A DNA stretch of 64,000 nt from Psammoneis japonica (lineage: Eukaryota): positions 124,001 to 188,000 of the forward strand of contig QPGO01000064.1 in assembly GCA_008632985.1 (NCBI GenBank), written 5' to 3'. The translations under genes were made by a program, and so were the position numbers. Within the stretch, counting starts at the first letter, position 1. Every line of letters starts with the position of its first letter. This document shows positions 246-51,295 of the stretch, one piece after another. The notes under the pieces were generated by a model. That model made no database searches, was not told where the DNA came from, and was given only the letters and a program-made list of their open reading frames with translations.

Positions 246-1568
246 TCACAGGAGTGGCTGTTCCAGTTCGTTCTTTTCGTTAACCCTTTCATCGTCCTGC
301 GGTGGTTCACTCTCCTCTTCAGAATTATCCAGAGTTGACGTGCGATCATTGTGGCGAGGGACAAATGGATTTGCAAGACCGGTTTCAAACTCCCTCGTCA
401 CTTCATACTTTGCATCCTGATATCGCTTCTTTTCTGGTAATACGTACAACATCAAGTTGTCTACGATGAACGTAACCACCGCCAGCAATCCCAGTCCCGT
501 TGTCAACGTCACCAAAAAAGCAAGCGTATCAAATTGATGAAACTCTCCTCCCAACAAAACAGCAAGCTTTACTCCATGCGCCTTGAGAAGAGTACGGGAT
601 TCTCGGTAATGATCATAATACGGAATGCTTTGTTTGAACGAGGAACCAACGACAAGCTGAGGAGCATAATAGTAATAGGGATCCACTCGCCCTTCGTATG
701 GCTTGAAATCAGACCAATAGATATTGACAAGGACGGTTGCACCCGAGTCACGATAGGTTTGGCATGGACCATCACTTTCAACAGAAGGCGAGTTGCAACC
801 ATCCAGATCCATGCCTGCTGCTTTGAGCAAGACATTCAAAGAAAAGAAATCTTGTTTTGTTGATGTTCGATTGGGAGGAATGTAGCATGGAGCAGAATCT
901 GTCTCTTTGGATCCGTGGTAACTTGCAAACGCATTGCCAGATGCATGCTCGAGTTTGCATTGCTCTTCATGGTTGCACAATAGTCTTCCCTGATAACTGG
1001 ATGCTTGTGCTGAGCATGCGTACTTTGATGTTGCATTTTGATTATACGAAGTGCAGATTTTGGTTGCTGAAACCGCGTGGTCCAAAAGCACCGTAAAGGC
1101 ATCACTTTGCGCCGTGTAAAACTTGACTTCTTTCGAATCATCTTGATAGGTACGCGGACACGTCATTTCATCGTGACACACAAGCGATTGATTTACAGTA
1201 CTGGCTCGAGTTATGACTGCAAGAGACTTTTCACTGACAATCTGAGCATTTATTGCCTCGTAGATTTCACACTTATATTTTGTTCCCGCATAAGAAGCGT
1301 TTGACTGTGAACAGTACGGCAAGCTATCGAGTGGAGCCATGGCGTTATGACATTTTCTTGTGGATGGATCACAGTTATCAACCGTAGGCTGCTGGAGGGA
1401 GAATCGAACTACACCAACAACAGAAGAAGAGGACAAGTATCCACCCATAGCCCACATCTCGAATACGATAACGTAGACGCAGACCAAAATCAGCAGAAAG
1501 TACCGCAACAATCCATGCCTGGCATCCTGAATTTGAACATACTTGACAGTTTCGTATGAGCAAGCCAT
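246..1568 (-). CDS. P2X purinoceptor-like ATP-gated cation channel
   Basis: 440-aa ORF with N-terminal YETVK (YxTxK) motif, TM1, a Cys-rich ectodomain, RTLLKAHG (cf. RTLxKAYG), TM2 LTTGLGLLAVVTFIVD and C-terminal YQDAKYE (YxxxK). Confidence 0.9.
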   Translation of the reverse strand: MACSYETVKYVQIQDARHGLLRYFLLILVCVYVIVFEMWAMGGYLSSSSVVGVVRFSLQQPTVDNCDPSTRKCHNAMAPLDSLPYCSQSNASYAGTKYKCEIYEAINAQIVSEKSLAVITRASTVNQSLVCHDEMTCPRTYQDDSKEVKFYTAQSDAFTVLLDHAVSATKICTSYNQNATSKYACSAQASSYQGRLLCNHEEQCKLEHASGNAFASYHGSKETDSAPCYIPPNRTSTKQDFFSLNVLLKAAGMDLDGCNSPSVESDGPCQTYRDSGATVLVNIYWSDFKPYEGRVDPYYYYAPQLVVGSSFKQSIPYYDHYRESRTLLKAHGVKLAVLLGGEFHQFDTLAFLVTLTTGLGLLAVVTFIVDNLMLYVLPEKKRYQDAKYEVTREFETGLANPFVPRHNDRTSTLDNSEEESEPPQDDERVNEKNELEQPLL

Positions 1569-1811
1569 CTTGACCTTGACACATAGGAGTTAGAAGTAAA
1601 GGTCTTCTATAGGATAGCAGCTATTGCGAGACCACCTATAGCCTTAAGGGTGAAAAGGTTGCCGTTTGTCATCGTCGCGGCTATGCTATCTATCTACCGG
1701 TATCGCACAGCATTTTTCGAAATCCAATAGTACGGACAAACCACGCACGCCTTCTGTGGGAATCTGATGTGTTTCTACGTGTCGTACTTTGCCGTGTTGT
1801 AACTTCCCATC

Positions 1812-2247
1812 TGCAGTATGCCTCGCTACTGGACAACACGGCGAGACCGTGCATAAGCCTCTTGTACGTGGCAACGTAGTATTGTTAACACGTACCTGGG
1901 AAGCACGACCACAGGAGGGCGTGGCTCTAGGTCTTAGGCAATTCCAGAAGGATGCTAAGAGAGCATCCGGCCGTGTGAAGCACACTAGCCCGTCGTCTGG
2001 CCCACGATGGTAGCGTGATTCCACACGATGACATCACTCGTGCATGGCGCGTGATGGCTTGATTCGCACGATCCATAATGCGAACGCACGATCGATTTAA
2101 TACGATCCAAATGCGAACGAATAGGGATTTGGCAAGATTCCCTATTCGCACGATCCCATTTTCTCTACTCTAAACTAGCTCATAATTTTCACAACGACAA
2201 AGTCGTAACACATCTTCTTTTTCAGCGCCTGGCACACACATGGGGCA
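1812..2247 (+). repeat. 5' LTR (436 bp)
   Basis: Aligns end to end with 6605-7036 with one 4-bp indel. Retains about 23 TpA. Confidence 0.95.
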
Positions 2248-2308
2248 CAGTAATGTTGCTCCCGCATATTGTGCGAGGTAACGAAATCTACAGAAACGAA
2301 ACTACGAA

Positions 2309-5300
2309 ATGTTGGCAGGACCGACAAATCTTAAAACGACCATGAAGAAGCGGGTTGAGCCGCCGATTCCGTTCGCACGGCCGGAGAAGAAAGAGCTGCA
2401 GCAGGGCGAGCACCAGACGTTCAAGCTGCGTAACAACCCTGCTGATCCGGATGGTCCAACGCACGAGATGGGCATTCCGCACCTTTCTGCGGCTACATGC
2501 GAGACACTCCCAATCTTTCTGCGCAACGTGGATCGCGTGCACGAAGGACAAAACATCACGACCGGGCCAGCGAAATTTGCCCTCATGCGTGACCCACTGC
2601 AGGGCGATGCTCTGATGTCATTTGACAACGCCGCTGACAAGCAGGCATCCCAAACCAACGCTGCGTGCGCAGCATGCGTCGCGAAGCTAAAGGAGAGCAT
2701 CTTCCCACACAGGGCGGTGCCATTGCAGAAGCGCCATCTGAGGCACTTCATGCGCAAGCCCGCAGAGGTTTCTGTTCATGACTGCATCATGAGGGCTGTT
2801 GAAATTAACGGCTGCATCTCTCAGTTTCCACCCGTGATGGAGGATGGAGAAACACCGGCACCATTGCTTGATGACGAACTGTGCGACATGTTCGAGTGCG
2901 GTGTGCCGAGCGCATGGCAGAAGTTCATGACGCTACAGAATTTTGACCCGTTGGCGCATGCTGTCGCCAAATTTGCACAGTTCTGCGAGCGCACCGAGCA
3001 GGTTGAGCTTTCCGAAGGCAACCGCGACCATCATGCCAGGGTCCCACGCAAGCGGGGACGTAGAACGGACAATTCTGAGTCGTTGATCACGACCCAACCG
3101 AACACCCACATGAAGCGTGTCAAGACTGGACATTCCAGCAACGAAGGCAGCAAGCCCAACACAAAACCTCGGAATGAGGAAGATGTCAATGCTCTCATTG
3201 GATCGAAGGTCGAGGAGTTCTTTGCCAACGCTCAGAAAAAGCGCAAGGCACGCGAGGAGGAGCTCAGTCACTTCCGCGACCTCAACCCAAGTGACTCCGA
3301 AGACTCGGACACTTGCCGACACGACACAGGCAGTTTCAATGCATTGGACGAATGCACAAACAAACAACTGAATTGCCATCGTACACGTGTTGTGGGCCAA
3401 TCCCGCAAACGAGTTAAAAAGACTCATCTCACTCCAATCTTGTTTGCAGCTGTGAATGCCAAACATGGCAAGGGCAAGACTCAAACTGTCAAGGCACTGC
3501 TGGACAGTGGTGCCAGCAGTGCTCTGCTCGACAGTCGACACTGCAAACGTCTGCGAAGCCATTCAACGGCTGAAACAAACTGGGCTGCGGTGGCAGGCTC
3601 GTTTGGTGCGTCCAACGACTGTGCCGTTAAATTCCGGTTGCCAGAATTGTCCGAAACTGCAGAACTTGAGCATGTCGTCCATGCACACAACGGAAAGTTG
3701 GGCAAGTGCGATGTGATCATTGGACGCGACATTCTGGAGACACAAGGCATTGATGTTGTCTTCTCCAAACAGATGACAGAGTGGCCATCAGTCAATGGAG
3801 AAGCGCCAATGAGGCACGCAGATGCTGCGGTGGAAACCTCCTTCTATCTTCAAGATCCAGAAGCCTCATCTTTGGAAACCGACCGGATTTCGCGCATTTT
3901 GGACGCTGGGTGCACGCCGGCCTGCCTCGAGGACATGACGCGAGGGGCAATGGGACTTTCTGCAGTTCAACAAAACGACCTTTTGGCACTGTTGAAACGC
4001 CATGAGTCCTTGTTTGATGGGACATTGGGAGAATGGAAGGGAGAACCCTGCCATGTCCAACTCAAGGAGGGTGCAGAACCACACCACGCTTGTCCGCACA
4101 AAGCACCTCGTGTGTGCGAAGCTGCGCTGCGCAAAGAAGTAGAACGCCTGGTGCGTGTCGGTGTTCTCAAACGTGTCAACCAATCCCAATGGGCAGCTCC
4201 ATCATTTGTCATGCCGAAGAAAGATTTGACGGTGCGCTTCATCAATGACTTCAGAGAGCTGAACAAACGGATCAAGCGATTGCCTCATCCGATTCCTCAC
4301 ATCCAAGACATGCCACTCAAGCTCGAAGGCTTTATGTGGGCTGCATCGCTGGATTTAAACATGGGCTGTTGTCACATCCGATTGGACACTGATTGCAAGA
4401 AGCTCTGCACGCTCATCTTCCCGTGGGGCAAGCATGAGATGCAGGTGTTGCCCATGGGATTGTGCAATTCGCCAGACATTTTCCAAGAACGCATGTCAGG
4501 CTTGTTTGAAGATCTGTCGTTCGTTCAAACGCATTTAGATGACCTTCTCGTCGTGACGAAAGGCACCCACGAAGATCACCTCAACAAACTTGAAGAAGTT
4601 TTGTTGAGGGTCCAGAAAGCAGGACTAAAAGTTAACGCAACTAAGTCTCACTTCTGTCAAACCCAATTGGAATGCTTGGGTCATCTGGTCAACAGAGACG
4701 GAATGCGACCAACACCCAATAAAGTCGACGCCATTGAGCGAATCGCGACCCCAACCAACAAACGCGACCTGCGTTCATTTGTTGGCATGGTGAACTGCTG
4801 CCGCGACATGTGGATTGGACGTTCTGAAGTCTTGGCTCCGCTGACACGACTCGCAAGCGAGACTGTTAAGTGGGAGTGGACGTCCGTTGAAGACGAGGCG
4901 TTCGAAACCGTCAAACGGGCAATGTCGGATGATGTTTTGTTGTCACATCCTGATTTTAATGAACCCTTTGAGACACATGCCGATGCCTCTAAATGTCAAT
5001 TGGGAGCAGTTACATCCCAAGACAACAAACCCATCGCCTTTTACAGCAGAAAGCTCAACAGTGCGCAATTAAATTGTGCAACAACGGAGAGAGAATTGCT
5101 CGCCATTGTGGAGACGTTGAAAGAATTTCGAACGATTCTCCTTGGTCATCGCACAATCACATGTGCTGATCATAAAAATCTCACGTACAAAGCATTCAAT
5201 GCCGAGCGCGTTGTGCACTGGCGGTTGACATGTGAAGAATGCGGTCCCGAATTATGCCATGTTAAGGGCACCCATGACCCAGTCGCTGACGCTCTTAGTC

Positions 5301-6565
5301 GCCTTCGACTGGCACCCAGTTTGCCTTCCGAGGCTAATCCGGATGTAAAAGACACTCCATCGAGTCGTCCTTTGCATGAAGCTTTTAATGCAGACGCGCA
5401 AGATGAGCCATCTCTGCCTGTTGGCTTCAAGCGCATTCAAAAAGCACAACAAAAGGACAAGCGCCTGCTCTCAAGAGCTGAGGACTCGTCCGACTGCTCC
5501 ATTCGCGCGTGTCGTGGGGGAGGGTCATCACGACAGTCAATCTGTCATGAGGACAAAATCGCAGCACCACAGTCATTGCAGGTTCCGCTAACTGAATGGC
5601 ACCACTAGACACTGTGTCATCCAGGTGAGACACGTGCGGAAATGTCTGTTGCCCAGCACTTCTGTTGGCCCAGTGTGAGGTCTACGGTGCATTCTACGTG
5701 CGTTAAGTGCGATCGATGCCAGAAGACAAAACGCCGAACGCAGCGTCATGGGAAGCCACCAGAAAAGGTCGCAGAGATAATTCCATGGGAGACTCCATGC
5801 ATGGATGTGACAGGGCCACACAAAATTCAAAGACGCGGAAAGGACACTTTGCAATTGTGGGCAGTCACAATGATTGACCCAGCAACCGGGTGGTTCGAGA
5901 TTAAAGAAGTGTCTGCGAAACGCGCAGACGTCGCAGCAAACGTCGTAGAACAAACTTGGCTGTGCAGACATCCGTGGCCAACCCAGGTGGTTTGTGACCG
6001 TGGGACAGAATTTATGGCAGAATTCAGCCAAATGATTAAAAATGACTGTGGGATTTTGAAGAAACCCACAAGCAAACGGAATCCACAGGCAAATGCCATG
6101 GTGGAACATGCACACCAGACACTTGGCAACATGGTGCGCTCCTTTTCAGCACAGGATGTGGAACTGGACGAAGATGACCCATGGAGTGGCATCCTCTCCG
6201 CAACAGCCTTCGCTGTTGGAGCTGCGGAACACACGACCACGCGTGCAAGTCCCATGCAATTGGTCTTCGGACGCGATGCGGTTTTGTCCATTGCCCATCG
6301 TGCCAAGTGGAAGTGCGTGGAAACCAGAAAGCAGAAGCTTGTCCACTTAAACAACAAGCGTGAAAATCAGAAACGCAAGGAGTGTCAATGCACCGCAGGG
6401 CAATTGGAACTTGTCAAACAGGAACAATCCTCTAAATGCGGTTCTGACAGCTGTGCAGGACCCACCAGAGTTGTCCATGTGCATGACAACGGCACGTTGC
6501 GCATCCAGAACGGAGCGCTGACAGATGCGCACAATCTGCGGCAGATTGCACCCTGTCACCAGCAA
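2309..6565 (+). pseudogene. gag-pol polyprotein (protease, RT, RNase H, integrase), degenerate
   Basis: Protease LLDSGA; RT LPMGLCNSP and HLDD (from YLDD); RNase H ADAS, ERELLA, DHKNL; integrase HH..LCHPG/CxxC and D..D(RGTEF)..E. One in-frame TAG at 5606-5608 splits two same-frame ORFs. The probable original stop now reads CAA (6563-6565). Confidence 0.93.
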
Positions 6566-6604
6566 GACATCCTGTCACTTGACGGCCCTGATCATGGGGG
6601 AGTG

Positions 6605-7036
6605 TGCAGCATGCCTCGCTGCTGGACAACACGGCGAGACCGTGCACAAGCCTCTTGTGCGCGGCAACGTGGTGTTGTTAACACGCACCTGGGAAGCACG
6701 ACCACAGGAGGGCGTGGCTCCAGGTCTCAGGCAATTCCAGAAGGATGCCAAGAGAGCATCCGTGTGAAGCACACCAGCCCGTCGTCTGGCCCACGATGGC
6801 AGCGTGATTCCACACGATGACATCACTCGTGCATGGCGCGTGATGGCTTGATTCGCATGATCCACAATGCGAACGCACGATCGACCCAATGCAATCCAAA
6901 TGCGAACGAATGGGGATTTGGCAAGATTCCCCATTCGCACGATCCCATTTTCTCTGCTCTAAACTGGCTCACAATTTTCACAACGACAAAGTCGCAACAC
7001 ATCTTCTTTTTCAGCGCCTGGTGCATGCACAGGGCA
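6605..7036 (+). repeat. 3' LTR (432 bp)
   Basis: Copy of 1812-2247 with only 2 TpA left (GTTAAC, CTAAAC). Confidence 0.95.
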
Positions 7037-7040
7037 CATC

Positions 7041-8640
7041 CGATCATCACGTCGCGAGTGAGAATTCGAGACGCGACGACACCATTTTTTGAGACTGGAT
7101 GTTTGCTGCTCGAGACAATGCCGTTTGCAACTTCAGACAACACAGTGCCGCTCGAGATGACATTTGCTCTGGGGCCCTGCTCAAGATGACACCAATCAAG
7201 ACTCACGACCAGACGGTGCCACTCGGCATGTGCATGATGCATCACCACTTGAGACTGGACACTGCTGAGAGCACGATGCAGGACAGCGAGAACGACGTCC
7301 CAGTGACAAATGGGAACTGCCAGCTTTCACTCAGAATGGCTTGGCAATTGCCGCTAAAATTTTTGGCAATGAACTGGCATCACTTTGCATGGCTCAAATT
7401 GTTGACGCCAGAGAATGAAGTTCAGCCCTCCTTCGGTCGGATGTGTTGTTGCCCATTGTCAACTGAGTCAAGATGAAGAAAAAAAAATCCAATTTTTAAG
7501 TGCTGTCACTCCTTTGCCAGCTGGGGCAGCACCAGCCAACCTGCACTTCCAGTGCACCATTGAGTGTGGCAGAAGTGGATGCTCCTCATGTGGACAAACC
7601 GGGATGGGCGCTGCTGGAAGGTGACGTGCCACCTCAGCAGCCTTTTCTTTCCTTCAAATGTGGTTTGACCACAGCCACCCAGCTCAGAATCCCAGTGGTG
7701 GAATGGGTTGTGTGATCTTCAAGGGAACCCAAAAGAACCTCCCTGTGGTCCTTTGCCATGCATTCTTGGTGCTTGTCACAGATGACAGTGGCAAGCTCTG
7801 GCTGGGAAAAGATTTCCGCACATTGCCTTGTCATGCTGTTCCTGCAATTTCCACCATGAGGTCCAAACATGTGACCCAATCTGCGCTGCCCTGAGTCAAG
7901 ATGAGCCAGTTTGTTCACACGTGCAACCTGGAAATGTCAAACAGGGTTGGAGCTGAGCCCAGCTTTCTTCTGTCGTGCATTGTTTTTTTTGTGGCACAGT
8001 GAAGTGGGGCCAATGCAAACATGTGCCATGTGCTGCACAGCACATGCTCCTGTGGTGTGCTTTGATGAGCTGTAAAAAGGTTTGTGGCAGAGGCTCCAAA
8101 CAAGAAATGTTGTGCATGATTTTTGGTGCTGCACCCAGCACTTGGTTGAAAAGACAGCACAGCTCCAAAGTGCCAGCGAGTGGAGCACCAAAGTGAGAGG
8201 AGCTCCTTTGCCACTCTCACTTGCTCGCAGGCCTGTGCAAACAGCCTCCCACCCATCTCAAGCAACACCCTCAACTCTGTGACTGCAAGAATCATGTGTG
8301 AGTTCCAGCTGACAACTCTGTCCAGCAACAAGAGGTTGATGAGGCTCACAAAGGCATCCTCCGGGTTCAAATTGTCTTCCAACTCGCAGGTGCCACTTGC
8401 GGTGTCACTTGCGGAATGATTCAGCATCTTTTGCTTTCACTGAAGTGTGGACGTCCCACGATGTTCACACTGTGCGAGACAAGGCAAAGGAGATGTGTGC
8501 GTGCAAGTGCGAGACTCTAGCCAGCTGCTGGCAGGGTGTTCTGTCTTTTTTCGAGAATGGCTATTACTAGCCCACTCCCATAGCCTTTGTGGGGCGATGG
8601 ACGAGTGCGATGCCCACGCAGCGAGCATGTTGATCCATCA
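7041..8640. other. TpA-depleted relic block (core also CpG-depleted), origin unrecognised
   Basis: Only a few TpA between 7041 and about 8500. CA/TG-rich, with many overlapping Cys/His-rich ORFs. Confidence 0.8.
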
Positions 8641-8698
8641 AACGGCAAAAGCCTCCACGCCTTCATGCAATACTGTGCTTTTTAGTTATGCTTTTTAG

Positions 8699-10657
8699 CT
8701 AATCAGAATTTTTGTCTCGAAAGGCCGTGCTGTCCCACTCCATACCTGAGGTTAGATACTGAACGGCCAAATCCAATTTCTTGGAAGGCAGCTTTGTAAT
8801 AGACAATGGATCACCATATCGTTTACCACCACGAAACATGACAAAAGTAGGAACCGCCTTTACATCAAGAACTCGACCAAGTTCTTTTCCAGACTTTCCT
8901 GCCGTATTCGCCTTCGCAAAAAACACATTATCTTTTTCTTCCGTTGTCATTCTGGCCATGCGGGTGAAGGCTGGAGTCATGTATCTACAAGTGGTACAAT
9001 ATGATGCACTCATAAACATGACACAGTCTCTATGCGATGACAGAACCTCATGCTGCAAACCAGTAACATCTGTAATATCCATGACGAAGGGATTCTTCTG
9101 CGCGTTGCTGGGCAACGCCTCTTCTTCAATTTCATCGTATGCTTGCGTTTGTCGGTTGCGGTCAATGTTAGTCAAAGGCGGAGCTGAAACCATTCCATCT
9201 GCTTCTATATCATCCAAAACTGGCAGCCCATACCTCACGTTAGATCCGGACGAATCCCTTGGCCAAGATGCCAACTCCCAGAACTCTTGCAGAGACCAAG
9301 AACGAACGTTCTTGTTGTTTGAGAAAAGAATCTTTTTATCCAACAGGGTTTGTACCATGTCTGCCAAGTCCGAAGGAGGGATAATTTGTGTAGTGAACTT
9401 GGATGAAATGGAATTTTGTGTCGTTGAGATGTGTTTGTCGGCTTTTCCAGGGCCAAACAATACTCCGCTATCGCGAACAATTCTTTGAGATTCCGTCATT
9501 GTGCTAACATACCTGCGGTTTCAGAGGGTTAACAATTTTTGCTGAGCTGCTTCCAAGGATGAATAATATCCACTGTTTCTTGCTCATAAGACTGCTTGTT
9601 GGGGCACTCACCGATGACAATTGTGTTGGCTCTTTAGCAACGATACGACACCGCCACCTGATAATGTCATCATGTCATCCTCATCTTCATCGTCCGAAAG
9701 AAAGCCGTCGCCCCTTCGTTCATCCGACATGGTATCTACCAAGGCATCAAAGTCACCCAACGCGGCTGCAAATCCAATGTCTAACTCGCCCACAGCTGGC
9801 TTCATTACGTCAATATCACTATTCCGAAACCGAAGCTTGTCGTTTGTCGTCACGACTGCCACATTTGCCCCCAAGGCTGCCAAGGCCCTATGGCAAAATT
9901 GAGAAAATTTTCAAGCCCATGGCGTCAGCTTATTTTCAGAACAAAAATTACATGATTTGCTCAGCAAATACTGAAACTTACTCTGCAACAAAACGAGCGT
10001 AGTCGCTGCCACCCATTACAACAACCTGCGATGTAAGTAATTGGGAGAACAGAGTGTAAGATAAGATATCTAGCACTTCATGCGCCTTATGCCTGGAGGA
10101 TTCCCCGAGTTTACTATCAACGGCCTAAACAAACTCACTTTTCCCGATACAAAAGATTCTCCACCGCCACCGACTCCTTCCAAACGAGGCAATCCACAGT
10201 ACACACCAGAAAGTGATGCCATCATTGTGGATATCGCATCCTGATCAGTCACATCAGATGGAACAGATACCATTGAGTCCTTGTAAATGTGCACATCTTG
10301 ATCTAGTGACACAGTACTTTCAGAGTCTTTTGAGCCATTTGATAAGACTTGAATGCCCATGACGCGCTTCTGGGGTGCATCCTCAGTCGTCCCGGTTACC
10401 ACCGTCATGTATCCTGCGTTACTCGATAGACCGCCGCTCAACGAAGGTGCAGCCGGCAGGAATTTTTGTATCGACGTCCATTCTGCTCCATCGTAGATTG
10501 CAACTCGACTTGTCGATACTGCTTTCAACACTAAACTATTCTCCCGGATGCCTTGGAATAGTCTTCCAGAAGAACGGCTGGATTTGGTGGCTACGTATGC
10601 AAAGGCGAAGTATCGGTAAGAAAATATCCACCAAAACAAAATCCACTTCTCCAACAT
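8699..10657 (-). CDS. Probable plastid-targeted protein with a Rossmann/MDR-like middle region and C-terminal thioredoxin domain (4 exons)
   Basis: Signal peptide ending FAF-AY. GT-AG introns join approximately 10657-10139, 10026-9982, 9889-9612 and 9513-8699 (VVVMGGSDYARFVAE-GLAALGANV). Thioredoxin motifs ASYCTTC and AVPTF. Confidence 0.75.
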
Positions 10658-10891
10658 GGTCTATTGCGAGATTTCTTGATACCGTTACAAAATATGCCTT
10701 GTCGGACCCAAAGAACGATCCGCGAAACTAGTTGGTTTGTTGCAGTTGTTTCAATGGATTCCGTCGCGCCGCAAAAAGATTGGGCGGGAAAAACACCGTT
10801 GGTCGTGTGCGCCACCTTCTGTTGTCGTGGTAGACGGAACACGTAGGTTTCTACGTTACCAGCTGCTGGCGTCAGTCGTTACTTCAATTAG

Positions 10892-10898
10892 NNNNNNN
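10892..10898. other. Assembly gap
   Basis: Run of N. Confidence 1.
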
Positions 10899-16407: not shown

Positions 16408-17650
16408 ATGTCGGATGAAACTCTCTATTCGGGTGCTCAGCAACGCATTCTTGGAATCATTCCCTGCATTTCGGCACCGCCGTCTCTGCTTGGCTCGTTG
16501 ACAATTCTGTTTGTCATGTTCAGGGAAAAAAAGTTTGGACCACTCTGATGCATCATGATTGGCTTGTCCTCCATGGATGTTCTCAATGCCTTTGGTCTCA
16601 TCATGTTTGGGTCTTGGGCCATTCTGGCAGAGAGCGCATTGGCCCACAATGCAAGTGGAAACACTGCCACGTGTTCTGCATTGGAGCTCGTTCTTCACCT
16701 CTTGGGAGGGAACTTTGTGCAAACAGCATGCCTGTGTGTTCACTTTCTCTTGTCAATTTGGTGTGAAGTCAGTGATGAGGTCATTGCACGCTGTTTTGAA
16801 CTGTGCTTAGATTCACTCTGTGTCATTTGGGTTCTTGGAACGGGCATTGGTGGAGCTGTTTTGCGGGGCTCATGAACCCTCTGCCAATTCCATCAGGATG
16901 GCGTTGGCTCAAAGACCACCCGCCCAGCTGCTCTGGCAATGACACTGTGCCTTGTTTGAGGGGTGAGAACTTCAAGCTTCCTGATCAGATTGCAATGGGT
17001 GCTGCCTGCCTGTCGTCTTTTGTCATGGTTTGTGTTTGCACGGTGCTCATCTTTCTCAAAGTCCGATCAACAGAATGAAGGATGTGTTCTTGCAGTCACC
17101 CGGCAATGCAACACATGCAGCTGACAAGAGAGGCTGGAAAGAAAGCATTGTCTTACATTTGCTGCTTTTTAGCCAGCTGCCTCTTTCTCTTGATCATTGC
17201 CATGATGGACATTGAGGAGTCGGCGAAGAATGCAAAGTTTGCTTTCCCATTGCAGTGGTGACCAAAACTCTTGCCCCTCTTCAAGGATTCTCCAATTCCC
17301 TCATCTTTGTCATGCCAAGATGGAAGGAGCTGTTTTGTGAGGGTGGCGGAGCTTTGCATTTCATGTCACATCAAAAGCGCACAAAAGATGCAGCTGAGAT
17401 GACATTGCAGAATTGTGAGGACCCCACTGGCCCAGTTGTGAGAGATTGGAAAGATTCACAAGAGGGTGAGGCAACAGTGGGAATGACACGTGGACAAATG
17501 TTGGATGCCAAGGCAACCAAAACAAGGTTGCAGAGTTGTGAGGACCCCCCTGAATCAGCTGTGAGAGTTGAAAGGCCACAAAAAGGCAACACAGAACCAA
17601 GTGCACTGTGTGATGTTGTGCACAGATCTGTTGAGCAACCCAATGGCTGA
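16408..17650 (+). pseudogene. 7-TM GPCR-like gene (diatom expanded family), decayed
   Basis: Reads ISAPPSLLGSLTIL, IGLSSMD, ASGNTATCSA, NP..GW.W..(Y>H)PPSC..CLRG, LAPLQGFSNSLIF across stops and frameshifts. Tyr nearly absent. Confidence 0.75.
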
Positions 17651-20600
17651 TGGTCCACCTCCTTTGATTGAGTCCAGGTGATGAGGACAGATGCAGACTT
17701 TTGCTGGCACCAGCTCTGGGTGATGCATGTGGGGGCGGGCAATTTGTCAATGGCCCATTTTGCACTCAGCACATTCAACTTTTTCAATTTTTGATTTCAT
17801 GGCTGACAGCCACGACTCATTGGGAAGGTGTCTTTTTCCACATGAAAAATGTGTGCACACACAACTTCTTTCATTTTTTGGATCTTCCATTTGTTCTCTC
17901 TGCTCAAGCAGTGGTCATTTTTGCTGAAGTCAAATTGCACTCAACTGCCCCACTCACCAGTGTGTCAATTTCTGCTGAGCGTGCCAAAAACATCTCTTCT
18001 TTGCCCATTTCCCTGCTCATCACTTTGCACCCCAGCTGGCTGCCTTGCAGATTGTGCTGAGCCATGTCCTGGAAAAGAAAGTTTCCCAGAGTTGGCAATC
18101 AACACAAGTCAGGATGCCCTGCCAGCCTGGTCAGAAACCGTGCTGTTGCCAGAAGACAGAATGACCAACCAAATCTCAGCAAAGGGTGCCACTGGGAAAG
18201 GACAAGCAGCAAAGAAGAGCGGCGCTCTTGCATCCACCAGCAGCCTCAGCTCTTCCAACACCAAGCCCTGCACAGCAAGGGTGGCTGTCAACAAGATTGA
18301 GCTGCCTTGCACTTTTGGTCAGTTGGTGCACACCACACATGGCAGGAAGTTGCAGCCCCTCCTGGCACACCTTGTGAAGAAACCACCAGAAAGCCACACT
18401 TCATTGGCACTTGTCCTGTTGCCTGTGACAAGCTTTGTTGAGTCTGGCCAAGACAAAGTGCCAACCAAAAAGGCAGCTTTTTTGAAGCATTTGTGCCAGG
18501 TCTCTCAAAAGTCAAGCCCTCTTTCTTAACCTCCTCTCTTTGAGCCAGTGCTTTGGGTGTCCAGCAGCACCTCTGCAAAAGCCACCGGCACTCTTTTCAT
18601 TGCTTGCTCTTGCTTCCAGCACCACCAGCCTCAGTTGCTGCAGCACACCATGGGCTGTGCACAGCAAGGCTGTGCTGGTGTTGACAAGACCAAGTCTGTG
18701 TCAACAAGCTTGGCTGATTTGGCGCTGAAGTGCTGAAAGCTTTGGCATTTCCAAGTGAGCGCACACTTTGTCAAAAATCCACTGGCCACACTTTGTTGAT
18801 GCCACCTGTTGCCTGTGCAAGGCAGGCTTTGCTGGGTCCAACCACCAGGGCAAAGCACCAGTTAAAACAAAAGCTCTCAACAAAGCCTGGCCACCGGTCC
18901 ATCTCAGAGGTCATCCCTGACCTTTGTGCTTGTTGCCTTGGCACTCAAGATGCAGCTGCCACAGCTGCTTTGTGTCCAAGGGTGTTGTTGGAGTGCAAAC
19001 CTTCCAAATGCTTCTCATGTGCAAAGTGCAAAGCCCAAACCACAAAAGGTCTCAAGCTCTTGCAGAGTCGGTGGTGTGGAGGGCAAATCTGCTTCTGAGC
19101 TTGGTTGGGGGCACCCAAAAGGTGGCATGCATCAAAACAAGTCACATGGCCACTTGGGTTGCAAAGCAGGCTGAGCTGTTTGCCATGGCTTTTGTGAGAC
19201 CTTTGATGCCCCCAAGTGCAGCAGCTGCTGCATTGCTGGCTGACACTTTCTCAGAGATGCTGCAACAAGCAAGTGTGCCAAACCCACCAGCCAAAGCTGC
19301 ATGGGTGCAAGATGCCCCCCAAGCGAGTGCCCAAAAGTTGGCAACAACTTTTCTGCACAGCAGCGGGCCAACCAAGCAAAAAGCACAGAGACACCAGCTC
19401 ATGAGGAAACTCTTCTCCCAAAGGCAAGAAGAGCAGAGCAGCCCTGCTGCACACTTTCCTTGCTTGCCAGCTGGAGCAGCAGCAGCAGCCCTGCAACACA
19501 CTTTCTCACTTGCCAGATGGCTTGCCTCCTCTGCTTTGTTTTGCAACACTCACTTTGGTTTTGCTGCAAGGACAAAGAGAAGTTGCAGTTTCTCTCTCAA
19601 AGCTTTTTGCTCAAGAATGAGCACACATCAGATTGAGCATGATGAGGGTTGTGCGCCCCCAGCTGAAGCCTGGATTGAGTCAAGCAACAAGCTGCTCTTC
19701 TTCCATCAACTTTTTTGCTGCAGAAGAGGAGGCTCATTTTGATGGGCAAGCTTGGCTGACAGCAGCAAAACCTTGAGGAGTTGAGACAATCTCAAGCTCT
19801 TCATTGTCCCACTCAGTTTTCTGAGACCAGAGCTCACCTTGCTGAGGTTGCAGCTTTGCTCACAGCTTGAGCTTTGGCTTTTGCTCTTCCATTCATGCTG
19901 AGACCAACGAAACAGATCAAATGGAGCCCCGACAAAAAAAAGGCAAACAGCCACAGAGTGCTTTGGCACTGGGGCAACACTTGCACACTGTCCACAGCTG
20001 AAGTCAACAAAGAATTTTGCACTCTGGCACAGCTGACAAATGCCCTCTGGAGGCTGTGGCAGGGATCAATGTTGCATGGTGTGACCTTCCTTGTTGGCAC
20101 ACCGCCATTCTCTGGCAGCTCCAGCCACAAGCAACAAGGCCTCCAACCCCTCTCTCAACATTTGGCACATCCTGGTGCATCAAACAGGTCAAGCCAGCAA
20201 CCAAAGATGATGCACAGATGAGCAGCACTGGTGTTTCCAGGGCAAAACACCAAGTGCAACAGATTGACCACACACAGGAGTTGTGCAGCATGGTCCTGTG
20301 ACCACACAGAAAAGCTGGCTGATGTGCCCAAACTGTGAGCCAGCACTGAGTTGAACATCTCACCATGTGATCCTCAGTCTGTGGGCTCCCAAGTTGGCTG
20401 TCACATTTCCTGTTGTGATGAAATGAAGTCCTCTCTGCATGAGGCAGCTGAGAAATGAGCATTTTGGCCATCAGCTGGAACAACAAATGCCCCAAAAAAG
20501 ACAAGCTCTGGCAGATGAAGACAAAAGTGTCTGGTGCTGAAAACTGCACCAAAAATTGCACTTGATGAGTTGTGTGTTTCACCTTGAGCTGGAGCCGACC

Positions 20601-21200
20601 AGCTGGCAAAAGAAAAAATCTCGAGGGGTGCCGAGTTGTGCTGTTTTGTCGGGGTGTTGCTTGCTTTGCACACACACGGACACAGGGGGACTCTGGCACA
20701 GCACAAAATGTGGCAGTGCTCTTTGTCTTGTGTGCAGCCTGGGCACTTGGCATTGGCCACCTCTGTGCACAACATGGGATGGCAGGGGGGACAGCTTTGT
20801 GGCTTCTTCTGTGACAAGAACATGTACCACAACATGTGTCACAATGTGAGAGAGCAGCTGTAGCTGGCTCTCCCTTCTTCTTGGAAACAAGCATTGGCGC
20901 TGGTGAGCCACCTCTGGATGATCATCAATCTTGGATGTCGGCGGTCGTTTTGTGGAGTGCAACATGGTGCAGTAAACGACAAACAGGTCGTGCGTTCTTC
21001 CATTGTCCGTTCATCGTTCTTCGTGGCGCGGCGGCCGCGACACGGCCGCGAGAAGCGTTTGTAGGCGAGAGGAAACAACACATCCCCGAAACCTAACCGA
21101 CGGACAAGGTAACAACAGGATCGTGTGGGATCAACTTCAATGCACACGTAGCTTCTACAGCGTGTCTGGTACTCGGGTTGGATCGCGAGAAAAAACTGCA
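17650..21200. other. Heavily TpA- and CpG-depleted relic block
   Basis: About 3 kb with only a few TpA and few CpG. Fragmentary ORFs of unrecognised origin. Confidence 0.85.
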
Positions 21201-21245
21201 ACATCACACGCCAATCTTGTTGTTGTGTGACGATAATACGAGACA

Positions 21246-22727: not shown

Positions 22728-25386
22728 ATGGGGAAAAGCACGATTGTTCGTTTTAGTTTCATTTACTTGATCGCCGGGCTGCTTTGCGATTCAATTGTGG
22801 GAGCCGTCCATGCATTTGCAGATCTGCGCAACCTGGAACCAGGGGAAGGCCGGATGTCCCAAGGGGCGTTCCTCTGTGCTCCTTTGAACGGTCGATCGAT
22901 GGAACCGACGATGATGGTGAAGAAGCCGTTGTCTCCACCAGGTGACTCAGACGAGGGCAAGTCATTCTGACAGGCAGCAGAGACCTTGAGCTGTGCCGAG
23001 CGGTCTTTTCTGGTGATCCAGATCTCTTGCACCTTTACGTTGGATTGAGATTTGGTCGAGCACATGTGCCACGTGGGGCTTTGGTTCTCAGTGCCCATGT
23101 CGAGTTCTCGGTTGAGCCCGAGGAAAGCAGCCGGCGAGACTTGGGGAACGACAAAGAGGCATCCTTGACGATTTTGGGAGAGCACGCGGGCGATGCATCC
23201 CGCTTTCGAGGAAAACGAAGCTCTGTGAAATCTCTCGCAGAATTGAACCGGGTGCTCCTTGGTCTGTGAGCTGGGTTGAGACAGAGGAGTGGAGATGTTG
23301 TGGCAAGAGGAACGCCACCTGCATCAGTCCTGTCATCCAAGATGTGATCAACCTCGAAGATTGGCAGTCAGGAAATGCTTTGGGGTGATGTCAGTGGTCT
23401 TTGGCAGTGCGAAAGACAACGGAACAAGAGTGGCGTGTGGCTGTGATGCTGGTGTCAACGTCGCACCCAAGTTGACATTGGAGCATGTTCAACCCTCTGA
23501 TGTCCAGTCGGCTTGCCTTGACGATCCGTTCTCATCCATCTGCAAAACCTTTGGCATTGAGCCACCAAAAACTGACGCCCCCACATCGAATCCAACACTG
23601 CGTCCAACAACTTCTGTGCCAATGCCATCTGCTGCATTGCCAACATCACCTCCAACCTTTCAACCAATGAGCTCACCTGCGGCATGCCCAACGCCACCAA
23701 CACGTCGCTGCCACCCACAGTTCAGCCGACTGGAGCTCCAACTTCTAGACCGAGTCCATTGCCGACGCCGGTTCCTGCAAACTGTCCAACCCAACGTCAA
23801 ACTCTCATGCCGATGCTTTAACCAACATTTTCACCAACCAATGCCTCAACAACCTCGCCCACACAAGCACCATCCACACACACCCAACGCTGCAGCATCA
23901 AACAAAAACCCAGACAAAATCGAGTTTGGGGGGATTGCTTCCCGACAAAAGTGGCAAGACGGGACTTCCATGCACCAACGACACCGAGTGTGCTTCGAAA
24001 ACATGCAGAAATGGTGTCTGCATGGCCTCCTCTGAATGTCGCCCGATTCATCATAGATGTGGTGCACCACTTGATGTCAATGCCATCAACATTGTCTTTG
24101 TTGGGTCAGGATTTGCTTCGTCCACTCACAGGAAATGGAAATCGCGAGCAAATGAAATGCTCATCAAAATCCAAAGCCATGCAATGTTCTCAAAGGACAT
24201 TGAGCAGCTGAACTTCTTCATGGTTGATCCTGTCAACCTCAGTGATTCCTTTTGCAACTTTGGTTGTGACGGTGTTGATCGACTCCTGTGTTGTGACGTT
24301 GGTCAAGTCGAAGCCTCAGCCAGTCGATGCTTCCCCGTCGGTCCAAATCTTCAAACACCAGTCGTTCACAACTCAAGGCAGTGTGGTGGAGCTGGTTGCA
24401 CTCATTGCAACATGGCCACATTCTCACTGCATGAGCTGGGGTGGCTTGTTGCTGTTCACGAACTTGGTCACTCACTCTTGGAGCTGGGTGACGAACATGC
24501 ACACGGAGATGAAAACGGAAATGAGCCCAACTGTGACTCCAGTTTCGACTGTGAGGAGTGGTCTGATCTAATCGAGCGCACCCCGGAAGGATGCGATCCA
24601 GCATCTTGTGTTCCAGGTTGCAGCAAGGGTCACTTTGTTTCGGGCAGTTTGCACATGGACAGTTTGGAAGCTCCTGCAGGTGCCGTGAATGATCGCTTCT
24701 CATGCTGCACATGTCTCGCTTTGACAAAAGCGCTCCCATCCTGCTGCGATGTGTTTGACTTTTCTCCAAACTGCCTGCGAGATCACTGTCAAAACTGTGA
24801 CTGTCCGCACTGTGGCAATTCAAACTGCGACCCGAATGGTGCAACAAATGTCAATGCTCCTTCCAGCTCTTCAGATCATGTTGCGAATTTTGTGCGGTTG
24901 GAGAATCCAGTGCTGATCAAGTTGAAGTTGCGGAGAAATGGCAAAGCAGTTGCACGAGGCAATCACACCCCACTTCCGCCAGGACTGTGTCGCAGGGCTC
25001 AAGTCGAGGGTGACTTTCCACAGTCAAAGGTCGCGGCGAGACAAGGGATTGACTCAATGCTGAAAGTGAAGGCATTGCATCGCGGTGGAAAACAAGTTTT
25101 GTTCTTTTCCCAGAGCGCGACTGTTGAAGTGCCATTCCCGGCTGTGGAAGGAGAGGGACGAAACAAAGTTCCTCGGCGAGTGTGCAAGAAATCGAAATCT
25201 TTCGATCTCATTGTCAACACGTCTGTGGTGAAAGATTGGAGAGTCAGTGGTGTAATCCTCAACGAGAACAACGCCCAAATCGCAAGTGAAATGCTGCCTT
25301 CCATGAGGAGAGAGGGTTTCAGTTGGATGCAGAGGACACCATCTTCCTGGGCATCTTTGCTGTTCGATGATTTCAGGTCACATTGA
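22728..25386 (+). pseudogene. Secreted peptidase M64-like zinc metalloprotease with PT-rich linker, hypermutated
   Basis: Signal peptide at 22728, Pro/Thr-rich linker, NIVFVGSGF, (Y>C)GGAG(Y>C), AVHELGHS..LGDE(Y>H). Stops and frameshifts in the 5' half. No Tyr in the 486-aa ORF 23926-25386. Confidence 0.8.
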
Positions 25387-43046: not shown

Positions 43047-44900
43047 ATGGGAATCAAACACCTTTGGAAGGCGGCGCTTGGAGCAATTAACACTGCACCA
43101 TCCGGACCCTTTGGTGTTGCCAAGGACACCATTGTTGGTGTTGATTTGTCCGTGTGTGGCTTCACAAAAGCTGTCACAGCAAGCGCAGCCAATGAAGGCG
43201 CCGCACAAAGTTTGATGTCACAGCTGCATCCACTGACTGGGTCACTGTGTCTCTTCAGTGTGTGCATCACAAGCTTGTTTCTGATGGATTGTGCTGCATC
43301 ATTCATTTGATGGATGCTGCCATCCCATGAAGAGTGTTGCTGAGCTGTGCATGACAAAAAAAGTCAAACCTCAAGGACAGATGCAGAACTTTGTCAGCCG
43401 GGCCAAGGCCAATGAGCCAGTGATGGAACAAGATCATTTGATGGCTTCATCCAAGATTCATGATCTGTGTGACCCTGATGCCAGTGCAGTGTCACACTTG
43501 ACAAAGGAGTGGTGGATGGAGCCAGAAGGTGTCAAATGCGAGTGCGCGCCTTTTGAAGCTGAGCATCAACTTGTGACGAAAATGGACGCAGAAGGTTGGA
43601 TCAACAGCATTGTGACTGAAGATGGAGATGCAACAAATTTGGGTGCAAAGTTGTTTTCTTTAAGGTTGACCTGCAAAATGGAAAGTGGAAAGTGCGCAAA
43701 AGGGATGTGTTGCCAGATGAATGTTCAGTGTCAAAATGCAAACTTGAAGACTGGCCGGCTGCAGCAGCTAATTTGCTTGGATCTGATTGCAACAAAAGAG
43801 TTGACAACATTAGATTCTCATGTGTCTTCACCAAGATTCTTCCCGGGCAAACAGATTTCCCAGGCAAAGCTTTGGAGAAAGCTGTCAGAGAAGGCGCCAT
43901 TGTCCTGCACTTGATGCTGATGGAAGCCTGGTGCCACAGAGGGCACTCCTGCAATCAATGGAACATGGGTTTGGGGGTCTGTGGTTGGTTTTGGGAAACC
44001 AGATCTGGCAGATCTGCCACCAGCTGCAGCGGCAGACTGTGGAAGGGCTCAGTGATTTGATGGGGCAGTCTTTGCAAGAGTTTCCAACTCCTGAGTGTGG
44101 AGCAGCAGAGAATGATGAGGCAGCAGGACAAGTGCTTCCATGGCTTGCATGTTTGAACTTCAATTTGGTTTTTGCCAAGTGCCTTGCAATGGATGTCCTT
44201 CAGCCAATGTTGGATTGCCGTGTTGTGCAGATGCCCAGAGACTGGTGGCCATGACACAGTCAAGGCCATGGCATCTGATCTTAGACTTCACCACATGTGA
44301 GTGTTGGAGCCTGAAAATTTTCCCACTCAGATCAGGCAATGGCCAGTTCACAAGGTGCTTGAGCTGGCGGACGCATCTGAGGGTTGTTGGGATCATGCAT
44401 GTCATTTTGAAAAAGCAAGTGAGCTGGAATCCTGCGATGGCTCAGTGCCAGAAAGCTTCTCCATCCAAATGATGGTGATGAGCACAATCTTCAATGCAGG
44501 CTTCTGTTGCTTGACAGTGGAAGTTTGCTTGCACAGGTGCCACTCAATTTGAGCAGTTTTGGGTTCTTGTGGATGGCACACTCATTTGGCCTTTCAAGTT
44601 GCGCTGCATTCTTTCTTGAAAACTGACGCTGTGTCATCCAGTCTGGAGTCCTTGTAAAGAAGAAGATGCAAAAGGGACACATGCCACCACATGTGGGCTT
44701 TGATGAAGAAACAAAGAAATTTCTTCAGCACCTGTTTTCATGCTGTGTGGCTGCTGTGATGAAAGAGAGATGTGCTTGCACACAATTGCAACACTGTCAA
44801 TGTCCGACAAATTCAAAGGTGTTGCAGTGGAAACATTTTTGAAGTGTCAATGCCTGGGTTTCCACTTGACCAATCCCCAATGCCGGTTGAACAACTCACA
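43047..44900 (+). pseudogene. XPG/Exo1-like nuclease relic with possible downstream SWIM finger
   Basis: MGIKHLW, VGVDLS, FDG..HPMK, APFEAEHQL and TEDGD across frameshifts. CGCCDEREMCLH (CxC-x5/6-CxH) near 44745. Confidence 0.72.
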
Positions 44901-45012
44901 TTTCAAGAGAAAAAAAAGATCTGCGCACATGGCGGCCCAAGCAGCTTTCTCTCAGATGGAAAGAAGAGACAGCAGCAGCAACTGCAATGATGACAATGAC
45001 GTCAAAACAAAT

Positions 45013-45739
45013 NNNNNNNNNNNNNNNNNNNNNNNNNNNNNNNNNNNNNNNNNNNNNNNNNNNNNNNNNNNNNNNNNNNNNNNNNNNNNNNNNNNNNNNN
45101 NNNNNNNNNNNNNNNNNNNNNNNNNNNNNNNNNNNNNNNNNNNNNNNNNNNNNNNNNNNNNNNNNNNNNNNNNNNNNNNNNNNNNNNNNNNNNNNNNNNN
45201 NNNNNNNNNNNNNNNNNNNNNNNNNNNNNNNNNNNNNNNNNNNNNNNNNNNNNNNNNNNNNNNNNNNNNNNNNNNNNNNNNNNNNNNNNNNNNNNNNNNN
45301 NNNNNNNNNNNNNNNNNNNNNNNNNNNNNNNNNNNNNNNNNNNNNNNNNNNNNNNNNNNNNNNNNNNNNNNNNNNNNNNNNNNNNNNNNNNNNNNNNNNN
45401 NNNNNNNNNNNNNNNNNNNNNNNNNNNNNNNNNNNNNNNNNNNNNNNNNNNNNNNNNNNNNNNNNNNNNNNNNNNNNNNNNNNNNNNNNNNNNNNNNNNN
45501 NNNNNNNNNNNNNNNNNNNNNNNNNNNNNNNNNNNNNNNNNNNNNNNNNNNNNNNNNNNNNNNNNNNNNNNNNNNNNNNNNNNNNNNNNNNNNNNNNNNN
45601 NNNNNNNNNNNNNNNNNNNNNNNNNNNNNNNNNNNNNNNNNNNNNNNNNNNNNNNNNNNNNNNNNNNNNNNNNNNNNNNNNNNNNNNNNNNNNNNNNNNN
45701 NNNNNNNNNNNNNNNNNNNNNNNNNNNNNNNNNNNNNNN
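45013..45739. other. Assembly gap
   Basis: 727 N. Confidence 1.
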
Positions 45740-50299: not shown

Positions 50300-50750
50300 A
50301 ATGTGCCGTAACTTGAAACCAAGTTCATGGACTGTTTTCATCGACATGGGTGCTTGGCTGGATTTCCATCCCAGAGCTGCGAGTCCAGCCACCCATGTGT
50401 TGAAGACATGCCAGAAGTTTGGATTCCACTTTGATCACATTTGTGCCTTTGAGATCACCAAGAAGATGCCTGAAGAAGCATTCAGGCTTGTTCTGGACAG
50501 TTGTTTCATTCACATCATTGGATCAATGTTGGTGTGAGTGCGGAGAAGGGTCATCGTCTCAATCCATTGTCCACCAGCACATTGTCCAAGTTTCAACCAG
50601 ATGACTTTGTCAAGGTCAAGCTTGACACTGACATGCCTTCCATTGGGGTTCCGTTGGCGTGTCAGGTGTTGGAAGAGGAGAGACACCATGGTGAGATTGA
50701 CCAGTTAAATCAAGGATGGCACAAAGCTCTTTCACGAACTTCGTAAGAAG
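50300..50750 (+). pseudogene. Fragment of a FkbM/SAM-methyltransferase-like algal family gene
   Basis: VFIDMGA.LDFH, KFGFHFDHI(Y>C)AFE, HWINVGVS..NPL, DDFVKVKLD.D, with a frameshift. Confidence 0.55.
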
Positions 50751-51239
50751 GGCGTCACTGATCATTCTGACTGTGACAAACAACAAGAACAACAAGGTCG
50801 TGAGCTGCCATTTCCATGATTTCCAGTGGTGCAGCCTGTTTGCTGGATGGGAAGAAGGCAGCAACTCCAGGCACACCTCCCAGTGGCAGCCTTAAAGAAC
50901 CCATGATCTTCGCAGCAGTCTGCTGGCACCTGGCAGGAACGACTGTCAGCTGGCATGTGCTCTAGATGGCTCAGCCGCTCCTTGCTGCTGCCAGTGGTGG
51001 CGATTGTTCTTCTCCCCACAGTGCCATCCAAATTGTCATTGCAATGACGCAAAAAGCCTTCCAGGGGGCCCTCAGAGAGCACGAGACATTTCGTTTTGAC
51101 AAACTGGGCTGCTTCGGAGAAGCAAAACCCAGTGGAAGCAAAGATTGCTGGCTCAAACAATGAGAGAGATCCATTGTCCCTCTTTGATGTGCACTCCAGC
51201 ATGCTGCTGTTGTGCACAGCAGCAGCCACGTGGACCAAC

Positions 51240-51295
51240 AGCAGCAGCAGCAGCAGCAGCAGCCAGCAACAACACAACAACAACAACAACAACAA
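51240..51295 (+). repeat. (CAG)n/(CAA)n compound microsatellite
   Basis: cagcagcag...caacaacaa runs. Confidence 0.9.

Follow-up and report, generated by a model that had tools for sequence, protein, structure and literature searches.

The closest described system to the one discussed here is the TpA hypermutation of the chlorarachniophyte Bigelowiella natans, in whose mutation-accumulation lines 230 of the 231 mutations in two integrated viral regions were A>G or T>C (Mettrop et al., 10.64898/2026.01.13.699255). The main text of this preprint places all of these A>G and T>C mutations on TpA, gives a rate about 1000 times the background, describes clusters poor in TpA and rich in CpA and TpG in which reverse transcriptase (RT) and DDE domains are enriched, and suggests an adenine deaminase of the ADAT2 type; the words "diatom", "LTR" and "CpG" are absent from it, and the supplements may hold context data. 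A literature search in which most matches were judged from their listings returned no report of TpA-directed hypermutation in diatoms and the 2026 B. natans preprint as the sole published parallel. The present analysis concerns a long terminal repeat (LTR) retrotransposon at 1812..7038 of a 64,000-nucleotide stretch of Psammoneis japonica DNA (contig QPGO01000064.1, positions 124,001 to 188,000 of the forward strand; this whole stretch is referred to as the window, and coordinates are counted from its first letter), the two LTRs of which differ at TpA dinucleotides in one direction. Quite probably, this is a young element that was struck after its insertion by a TpA-specific transition process acting tract by tract, and the case shares with the B. 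natans hypermutation the spectrum, the loss of TpA, the involvement of both strands and the confinement to tracts of greatly raised rate.

The pair of direct repeats at 1812-2249 and 6605-7038, obtained by repeat search and aligned with MAFFT, is about 92% identical and can be aligned from end to end. A script run on the alignment counted 32 substitutions, every one a transition and none a transversion, and a 4-bp indel, CCGG, that only the 5' LTR has. At 21 sites the 5' LTR reads TA where the 3' LTR reads CA (13 sites) or TG (8 sites), while the reverse direction does not occur at all, and the scripted count thus reproduces the original prediction, which had arrived at about 21 such sites, none reversed, by manual alignment. 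The other counts given there were likewise recovered: three CpG-type differences (TG of the 5' LTR at 1869 against CG at 6662, and CG of the 5' LTR at 2069 and 2104 against TG or CA at 6858 and 6893), two additional T>C changes beside a TpA at 2096-2097, a single 4-bp indel and no transversions. The remaining six substitutions form three doublets in the final 17 bp of the LTR that read CA in one copy and TG in the other (2233/34, 2237/38 and 2241/42), as had also been predicted. The one indel and these TpA, TpA-adjacent and CpG changes aside, the two LTRs are identical. Of the 438 positions in the 5' LTR, 46 (10.5%) belong to a TpA, yet they account for 21 of the 32 substitutions (binomial P ~1e-13), the 21:0 direction has a P of ~1e-6, and chance is excluded as the origin of the spectrum. 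The direct-repeat or LTR pairs of TA-normal metagenomic relatives, which served as a control, have transition to transversion ratios of about 1-3 and are free of TA asymmetry; one of them (L012) differs by 41 transitions and 44 transversions, with TA changes numbering 4 and 3 in the two directions. Since all 32 substitutions belong to the TpA, TpA-adjacent or CpG classes, the naive divergence of 7.4%, reached without clock-like substitution, is uninformative on the age of the insertion, which agrees with the earlier claim that LTR-divergence dating would be invalid in this genome.

Both strands are affected about equally. Within the LTR, 13 T>C changes stand against 8 A>G changes (P = 0.38), and no signal of strand-coordinated clustering of the two kinds was found in the LTR, where 9 runs were counted by hand and about 10.9 expected. 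Three successive T at 2096-2098 (TTTAA) are all C at 6885-6887 of the 3' LTR (CCCAA), a place at which the change extended past the TpA on one strand. A simple rule by which the base at +1 would govern the choice of strand was tried and found too weak (8 of 12 LTR sites and 2 of 3 T-preceded Tyr codons).

The direction of the change can be read from the coding part of the element. The pol frame was aligned to 9 homologues of 30-50% identity, and columns in which at least 60% of the homologues have Tyr were taken as consensus-Tyr columns. Not one of these 20 columns is still Tyr in the element: 9 are Cys (TGY), 9 are His (CAY), one is Trp and one is Met, so that the two strands again contribute equally, and the catalytic YxDD reads HLDD. 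Other consensus residues were kept (Phe 17 of 19, Trp 9 of 9, Gly 22 of 23 and Asp 22 of 24), and the Tyr content of pol is 0.4% compared to 2.8-4.1% in the homologues. The conversion of TAY codons to TGY or CAY in pol indicates a loss of TpA. Dinucleotide composition, expressed as the observed over expected ratio (o/e) of TA, sets the 5' LTR (0.87) with the upstream flank (0.67) and the background (0.60), and the 3' LTR (0.09) with the element interior (0.18) and the downstream flank (0.03); the compositional outlier is the 3' LTR, not the 5' LTR. The pol Tyr codons, the composition and the B. natans precedent support TpA loss as the direction, not a gain of TpA of the kind that fungi produce by repeat-induced point mutation (RIP). 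The original prediction had assumed as much for the 5' LTR, and it is upheld by the loss of Tyr in 20 of 20 columns and by the contrast between the two LTRs.

The element is a Ty3/gypsy-type LTR retrotransposon, as follows from the LTR pair, the TG and CA with which the LTRs open and close, the domain order and a purine run. The TA-rich 5' LTR (1812..2249, plus strand, TG...CA) has 23 TpA and is followed by a leader resembling a primer-binding site (2250..2340, plus strand) that retains 6 TpA. The gag-pol frame (2282..5608, plus strand) is open over 1108 codons with a TAG at its end; beyond this single stop, the same frame continues as the integrase part of pol (5609..6604, plus strand), and there is one stop among 1,513 pol codons. 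Pfam matches between the LTRs, together with a DSG motif in the translation, give the order protease (DSG), RVT_1, RT_RNaseH(_2), Integrase_H2C2 and rve. A purine-rich tract read from the sequence at 6593..6604 (plus strand) abuts the 3' LTR in the position of a polypurine tract, and the hypermutated 3' LTR itself (6605..7038, plus strand) has 2 TpA, with o/e values of 1.67 for CA, 1.58 for TG and 0.94 for CpG. The sequences flanking the element, at 1805..1811 and 7039..7045 (both plus strand), are identical at 6 of 7 positions and represent a possible 7-bp target-site duplication. The usual target-site duplication of Ty3/gypsy elements is about 5 bp. A match of this quality has a chance of 0.0017 for that register and speaks for one insertion, though its length is unusual and the match imperfect; for the related element L005 no target-site duplication was seen. 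A blastn search found no further copy of the element or of its LTR within the 64-kb window.

The depletion does not keep to the element. The TpA-depleted tract (2341..8517) sets in about 90 bp inside the element, runs through its interior and the 3' LTR and ends 1.5 kb beyond the latter; in the flank at 7039-8517 the o/e of CpG is 0.42, and normal TA density returns abruptly at 8518. Since it overruns the 3' LTR and begins inside the element, the tract does not follow the element borders. Four further TA-poor blocks were found in the window, at 16427-20824, 22765-25252 and 43089-51333, the last being split by an N gap (45013-45739). Their o/e is 0-0.08 for TA and 1.7-2.0 for CA and TG, and that of CpG is 0.06-0.33 except at 22765-25252, where it is 0.60-0.72. 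The block at 16427..20824 is virtually free of TA and CG (TA 0-0.05, CpG 0.09-0.22, CA and TG 1.7-2.0) and has single-copy depth; that at 22765..25252 holds a Peptidase_M64-like open frame with hardly any Tyr codons; and the largest TA- and CG-free block (43089..51333) starts within an XPG-like frame. Matches to Pfam were obtained for 2 of the 99 stop-to-stop frames of at least 90 amino acids in the TA-poor regions (7039-8518 and 10890-14650 included), namely Peptidase_M64 at 23749-25383 and XPG_I at 43285-43911, neither of which is diagnostic of foreign DNA. The 16.4-kb block opens with a frame that, by eye, resembles a decayed multi-pass membrane protein. Apart from the LTR element, the affected DNA includes a possibly Mutator-like insertion, which is described further below.

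The loss of TpA and that of CpG can be told apart. The CpG o/e of the element is 0.89-0.94 where its TA is already down to 0.09-0.18, which indicates that TpA loss precedes CpG loss. The low CpG of the older blocks may have come about by the usual decay of CpG that is methylated in silent DNA; diatom transposons are reported to be methylated in the sections consulted of a published study (PMC9998398). Among the relatives of the element, L053-L056 and L050/L051 are strongly depleted in CpG (0.07-0.28) with normal TA (0.64-0.92), and the two losses are therefore separable.

With regard to position, the edges of the tracts lie close to genes. Upstream of the element, the start codon of a P2X-receptor gene (246..1568, minus strand) is, as read from the sequence, 244 bp from the 5' LTR, and a spliced-type contig of one sequencing run (X2) over this gene extends to 1678; the named best matches of the gene are diatom proteins only, at 41-58% identity. 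Downstream, a thioredoxin-domain gene (8678..10755, minus strand), over which a run X2 contig has three skips of 94-113 nt with CT..AC ends, has its low-coordinate end about 160 bp away from where the tract stops. Run X2 contigs also flank the block at 16.4-20.8 kb within a few hundred bases. In the 5' LTR, three sites appear to be affected; among the 26 putative TA sites they come last and lie nearest to the tract, an arrangement expected by chance in 1 of 2,600 cases. The first 18 nt of the leader resemble the post-LTR sequence of L005 and have TG at two places where L005 has TA. These three tract-nearest sites, together with the leader, make the end of the 5' LTR look like a fading edge. 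The original prediction had concluded that the process depends on position and does not hit both repeat partners equally. This view gains from a tract that ignores element borders and from an affected single-copy block; the sparing of the gene-proximal 5' LTR, real in this assembly, is a single case seen in one element.

The sites that survive in the tracts point to a preference that goes beyond the dinucleotide. In 20.6 kb of tracts 73 TpA remain, compared to 1,622 in 37.8 kb of background. TTAA accounts for 31.5% of the survivors and 4.7% of the background sites, CTAA/TTAG come next, and there are no survivors at all for ATAT (124 in the background) or ATAC/GTAT (257 in the background). Metagenomic diatom tracts show a similar order, with density ratios of 0.013-0.024 for ATAC, GTAC and ATAT and of 0.28-0.57 for CTAG, CTAA and TTAA. 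RTAY is lost first (R, purine; Y, pyrimidine) and YTAR (TTAA, CTAA/TTAG and CTAG) persists longest. About 24 of the 26 putative ancestral TpA sites are gone from the 3' LTR, and the roughly 320 other sites per LTR copy carry no substitution outside the TpA, TpA-adjacent and CpG classes; taken together, these figures imply a per-base rate at TpA at least a few hundred-fold over the background, in line with the about 1000-fold measured in B. natans. Under the genetic code, a change of TpA to TpG or CpA adds no new stop codon (TAA to TGA exchanges one stop for another) and destroys TAA and TAG, which accounts for frames that stay open over long distances in the tracts and for pol having one stop only. 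The genes are killed by missense, with the loss of all Tyr, and long frames are left open.

The same signature occurs in metagenomic relatives. Comparison of the RT-RNase H part of pol with metagenome contigs yielded 58 loci, of which 9 have a TA o/e of 0.04-0.41 with raised CA and TG and the other 49 a TA o/e of 0.58-1.33. Four of these entries (L022, L023, L024 and L027) are one locus recovered from four samples at 99.86-99.95% identity. Between L022 and L027, 5 of the 12 differing positions are TA versus TG, alongside one CA/TG doublet and one CpG change, and between L024 and L027, 5 of the 11 are TA versus CA or TG, alongside 2 CpG changes; TA, TG and CA variants thus segregate among four samples of a related diatom locus, which may serve as a proxy for ongoing mutation. 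The paralogue L026, 86% identical to L027, differs from it by 223 transitions and 52 transversions, with 42 TA-versus-CA/TG sites, 42 CA-versus-TG doublets and 51 CpG-type sites, the pattern predicted for an independent saturation of two copies. In L027, TA-poor tracts at 1-2400 and 5500-12400 are bordered by genes for a 2-hydroxyacid dehydrogenase and Nop58. The latter is 80% identical to Nop58 of Seminavis robusta, and the named matches listed for it are all from diatoms. As the matches of both the P2X receptor and Nop58 are diatom proteins, two or more distinct diatom-like genomes carry the signature, and in one of them it still segregates. No direct repeat of at least 60 bp was found in L022, L023, L024 or L027, and the LTR asymmetry is not replicable there. 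Further pol-bearing metagenome contigs (L046, L042, L020/L035 and L026) have a TA o/e of 0.04-0.24, and the CpG o/e of L046 is 0.15.

Sequencing runs give a view of the locus beneath the assembly. One sample and three coded runs contain the stretch, and run contigs were aligned to 1500-21400; run X1 derives from the same sample as the likely assembly source, and its library type is not on record. Word depth is about 60 in the unique flanks and about 43-85 in the block at 16.1-20.8 kb (about 50-85 from 16.4 kb on), which is therefore single-copy and which was recovered in run contigs with about 1% differences. A 513-nt contig of run X1 (7008-7520) spans the junction of the 3' LTR and the flank with 1 difference. 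On the element, 5,799 contig pieces were placed (1,520 with at least 99% identity, 1,805 with 95-99% and 2,474 with 90-95%), with a summed word depth of 10,000-27,000, a value that is not a copy number; the element is a member of a multi-copy family with many variants. Of 269 positions at which contigs and window differ, 231 are transitions. Among 40 listed differences, 12 interconvert TA and CA or TG (with TA in the contig in 9 cases), 12 are CpG-type and 16 are of other kinds, and six of the 40 positions pair as three CA/TG doublets. Run X2 shows intron-like skips of 94-113 nt with CT..AC ends over the neighbouring genes, and neither the element nor the block at 16.1-20.8 kb has any depth in it, which is a hint only, the kind of run not being on record.

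Several explanations compete for these observations. One accepts the hypermutation as real and holds that two copies are joined in the element, an unmutated one supplying the 5' LTR and a mutated one both the interior and the 3' LTR. Ectopic recombination or gene conversion in the cell could have made the join, or an assembler that threaded its way through a high-copy family, and the LTR asymmetry would then be a matter of two copies and not of position in situ. It draws on the 5,799 contig pieces of at least 90% identity and their summed depth, which compares to about 60 in the flanks, on scaffold gaps in the window, the imperfect target-site duplication, the patchy TpA density inside the element and the fact that run contigs contain a fraction of 0.68 of the words of the stretch. 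On the other side, the flanks match at 6 of 7 positions, the LTRs are identical apart from the three classes and one indel, the affected 5' LTR sites are the last three of 26, for which a fading edge fits better, and single-copy tracts elsewhere also end within a few hundred bases of RNA-type contigs. Position-dependent sparing in situ is to be preferred, with a copy that was recombined or mis-threaded as a rather unlikely yet serious rival. Another explanation concerns the chemistry: a modification of thymine at TpA, for instance TET/JBP-type oxidation to 5-hydroxymethyluracil, followed by mispairing or faulty repair, would give T>C on either strand. TpA is self-complementary, so that a thymine-directed process yields the same symmetric outcome, and the preference for RTAY over YTAR can be read from either base. 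In dinoflagellate DNA, thymine is preferentially replaced at TpA. U33-A34, on the other hand, is the natural context of tRNA adenosine deaminases. Nothing in the sequence prefers the thymine route over deamination, and the sole experimental study of the signature proposes, as a prediction, an ADAT2-like adenine deaminase (10.64898/2026.01.13.699255, main text), which leaves thymine modification improbable.

The other alternatives fare worse. If a RIP-like change of C to T at CpA and TpG had created the TpA of the 5' LTR, the 3' LTR would be the unmutated copy. The dinucleotides CA/TG and TA are indeed those of fungal RIP, and diatoms have DNMT4 enzymes related to RID, the function of which is described as not known in the parts consulted of the source (PMC9998398); nothing here ties these enzymes to the TpA process. 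That reading has very little to recommend it, since conserved Tyr codons have become Cys or His in 18 of the 20 interior columns, since the TA o/e of the 5' LTR does not exceed 1 and the values of the 3' LTR and the flank are far under the background, and since whole blocks of the window are without any TA. Equally remote is an ADAR-like A-to-I editing of the element RNA before reverse transcription. ADAR enzymes favour a U preceding the edited A (cited in the main text of 10.64898/2026.01.13.699255), which would suit the TpA context; changes made before integration would, however, enter both LTRs, sense-strand T>C is as common as A>G, and flanking sequence outside the element and single-copy blocks are affected as well. 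The involvement of both strands, the differing LTRs and the affected flank rule out an editing of sense RNA. Nor is it at all probable that modified bases of silent DNA were simply read as CA and TG by the sequencing or base calling. Such an artefact could produce near-complete conversion and sharp edges, and no library type is on record for the run in support, but the same signature is found in several unrelated metagenome assemblies (with SPAdes-style NODE and coverage tags), single-site variants segregate between samples, the sequence recurs in Logan contigs whose depth stays even at about 60, and the B. natans preprint reports the same changes with Illumina reads in its main text.

The preferred reading is that of a young Ty3/gypsy-type LTR retrotransposon which would have inserted into a diatom-like nuclear genome and then been exposed to a TpA-specific transition process that turns TpA into TpG or CpA according to the strand affected. 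The spectrum, its direction, its strand symmetry, the geometry of the tracts and the presence of the signature in independently assembled diatom DNA have been described above as observed. The process would work on chromosomal DNA in tracts, the one at hand covering the element interior, the 3' LTR and 1.5 kb downstream and presumably fading over the last bases of the 5' LTR. Its chemistry may be a deamination of adenine to inosine, read as G, in the T-A context, as proposed for B. natans, and its targeting could follow silent chromatin and not sequence homology. This reading must be taken with caution on several counts. Six TpA at 2251-2332 are intact, among them an ATAT, the most sensitive context, and a simple edge fails to explain them, while the 5' LTR is not untouched if the terminal doublets derive from ancestral TA. 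Inside the element TpA is unevenly spread, with a TA o/e of 0.09 between 3 and 4 kb, 0.33 between 5 and 6 kb and 0.11 between 6 and 7 kb, and in a family of 5,799 pieces the copy could be a mosaic or recombinant whose asymmetry reflects differences between copies. The target-site duplication matches at only 6 of 7 positions, at an unusual length. The direction within the LTR is taken from the element interior and from composition, and the rule of a "+1 pyrimidine" for the direction at asymmetric sites, counted by hand, fits 8 of the 12 informative LTR sites. The contigs of run X1 probably come from the assembly's own source and so add no independent support, the enzyme is a putative one, and adenine deamination and thymine modification are indistinguishable from the sequence.

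A bolder reading would make of this a chromatin-domain-targeted DNA editing in diatoms that prefers RTAY, a palindrome-like context of four bases, converts TpA to TpG or CpA at a rate raised hundreds-fold, is independent of homology and stops within a few hundred bases of active genes. Of the two LTRs of one insertion, the process could then erase the one and spare the other beside a promoter, and it would silence by missense, with long false open reading frames as the remnant. Because the same signature exists in a rhizarian alga, it would be a mechanism shared across the SAR group (stramenopiles, alveolates and rhizarians), an ancient defence and a mirror image of RIP. We offer it tentatively, as an idea that might well prove right and for which the balance is at present slightly unfavourable.

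Some further features of the window belong beside these results. The insertion at 10890-14642, with a TA o/e of 0.23-0.33 and a CA of 1.5-1.65 that lies above its TG of 1.2, has a depth of 470-950, compared to 60 in its flanks. A contig of run X1 fuses 10889 to 14643, which represents an empty-site form in the same sample. The insertion carries an open frame of 1114 codons on the minus strand (11218-14559) without a Pfam match, whose nearest language-model clusters have DUF6729 or Mutator-like transposase domains, a lead only. At 54485-55148 there is an adjacent direct repeat of about 320-350 bp with 73.5% identity.

If TpA hypermutation operates in diatoms, it turns from a process of one chlorarachniophyte into a property of abundant marine primary producers, and it is then probably widespread among protists. 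LTR divergence is no valid clock in genomes of this type, and copies that have reached saturation will be missed when repeat libraries are compiled or homologues searched for. With TAA and TAG gone from the TA-free tracts, gene prediction will return long but spurious open reading frames there, and database "proteins" devoid of Tyr may be pseudogenes left by hypermutation. Testable handles on the enzyme and its targeting are provided by the LTR pair, by the order in which RTAY and other contexts are lost and by the tract edges near expressed genes.

Compared to the systems known so far, the pattern shares features with several. With ascomycete RIP it shares the look of a genome defence, transitions that are set by a dinucleotide context and fall on either strand, and the destruction of mobile elements where they stand. 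Unlike RIP, in which the change from CpA to TpA raises TA and AT and creates stop codons, the change from TpA to CpA or TpG raises GC and removes them, and no dependence on homology is seen, since single-copy blocks and a flank outside the element are affected. With the decay of methylated CpG by deamination of 5-methylcytosine, it has in common the end products TpG and CpA, the blocks concerned and the silent DNA; such decay explains the CpG part alone, and CpG changes in the LTR pair number 3 as against 21-27 at TpA. Animal ADAR and APOBEC enzymes likewise inactivate retroelements by clustered transitions of the deaminase type, but they act on RNA or on intermediates of reverse transcription, on one strand and in both LTRs, whereas the changes here were made after integration, on both strands and beyond the element. 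The closest resemblance is to B. natans, with A>G and T>C on TpA of either strand, in tracts and far above the background rate, a long-term depletion of TpA with enrichment of CpA and TpG, and the possibility of single-copy targets. In contrast to that rhizarian, the host is a diatom and thus a member of the Stramenopila, and the evidence is a fossil record instead of a mutation-accumulation experiment; what the present locus adds to B. natans is the timing given by an LTR pair, the loss of CpG in old blocks and a four-base hierarchy in which RTAY is erased and YTAR spared.

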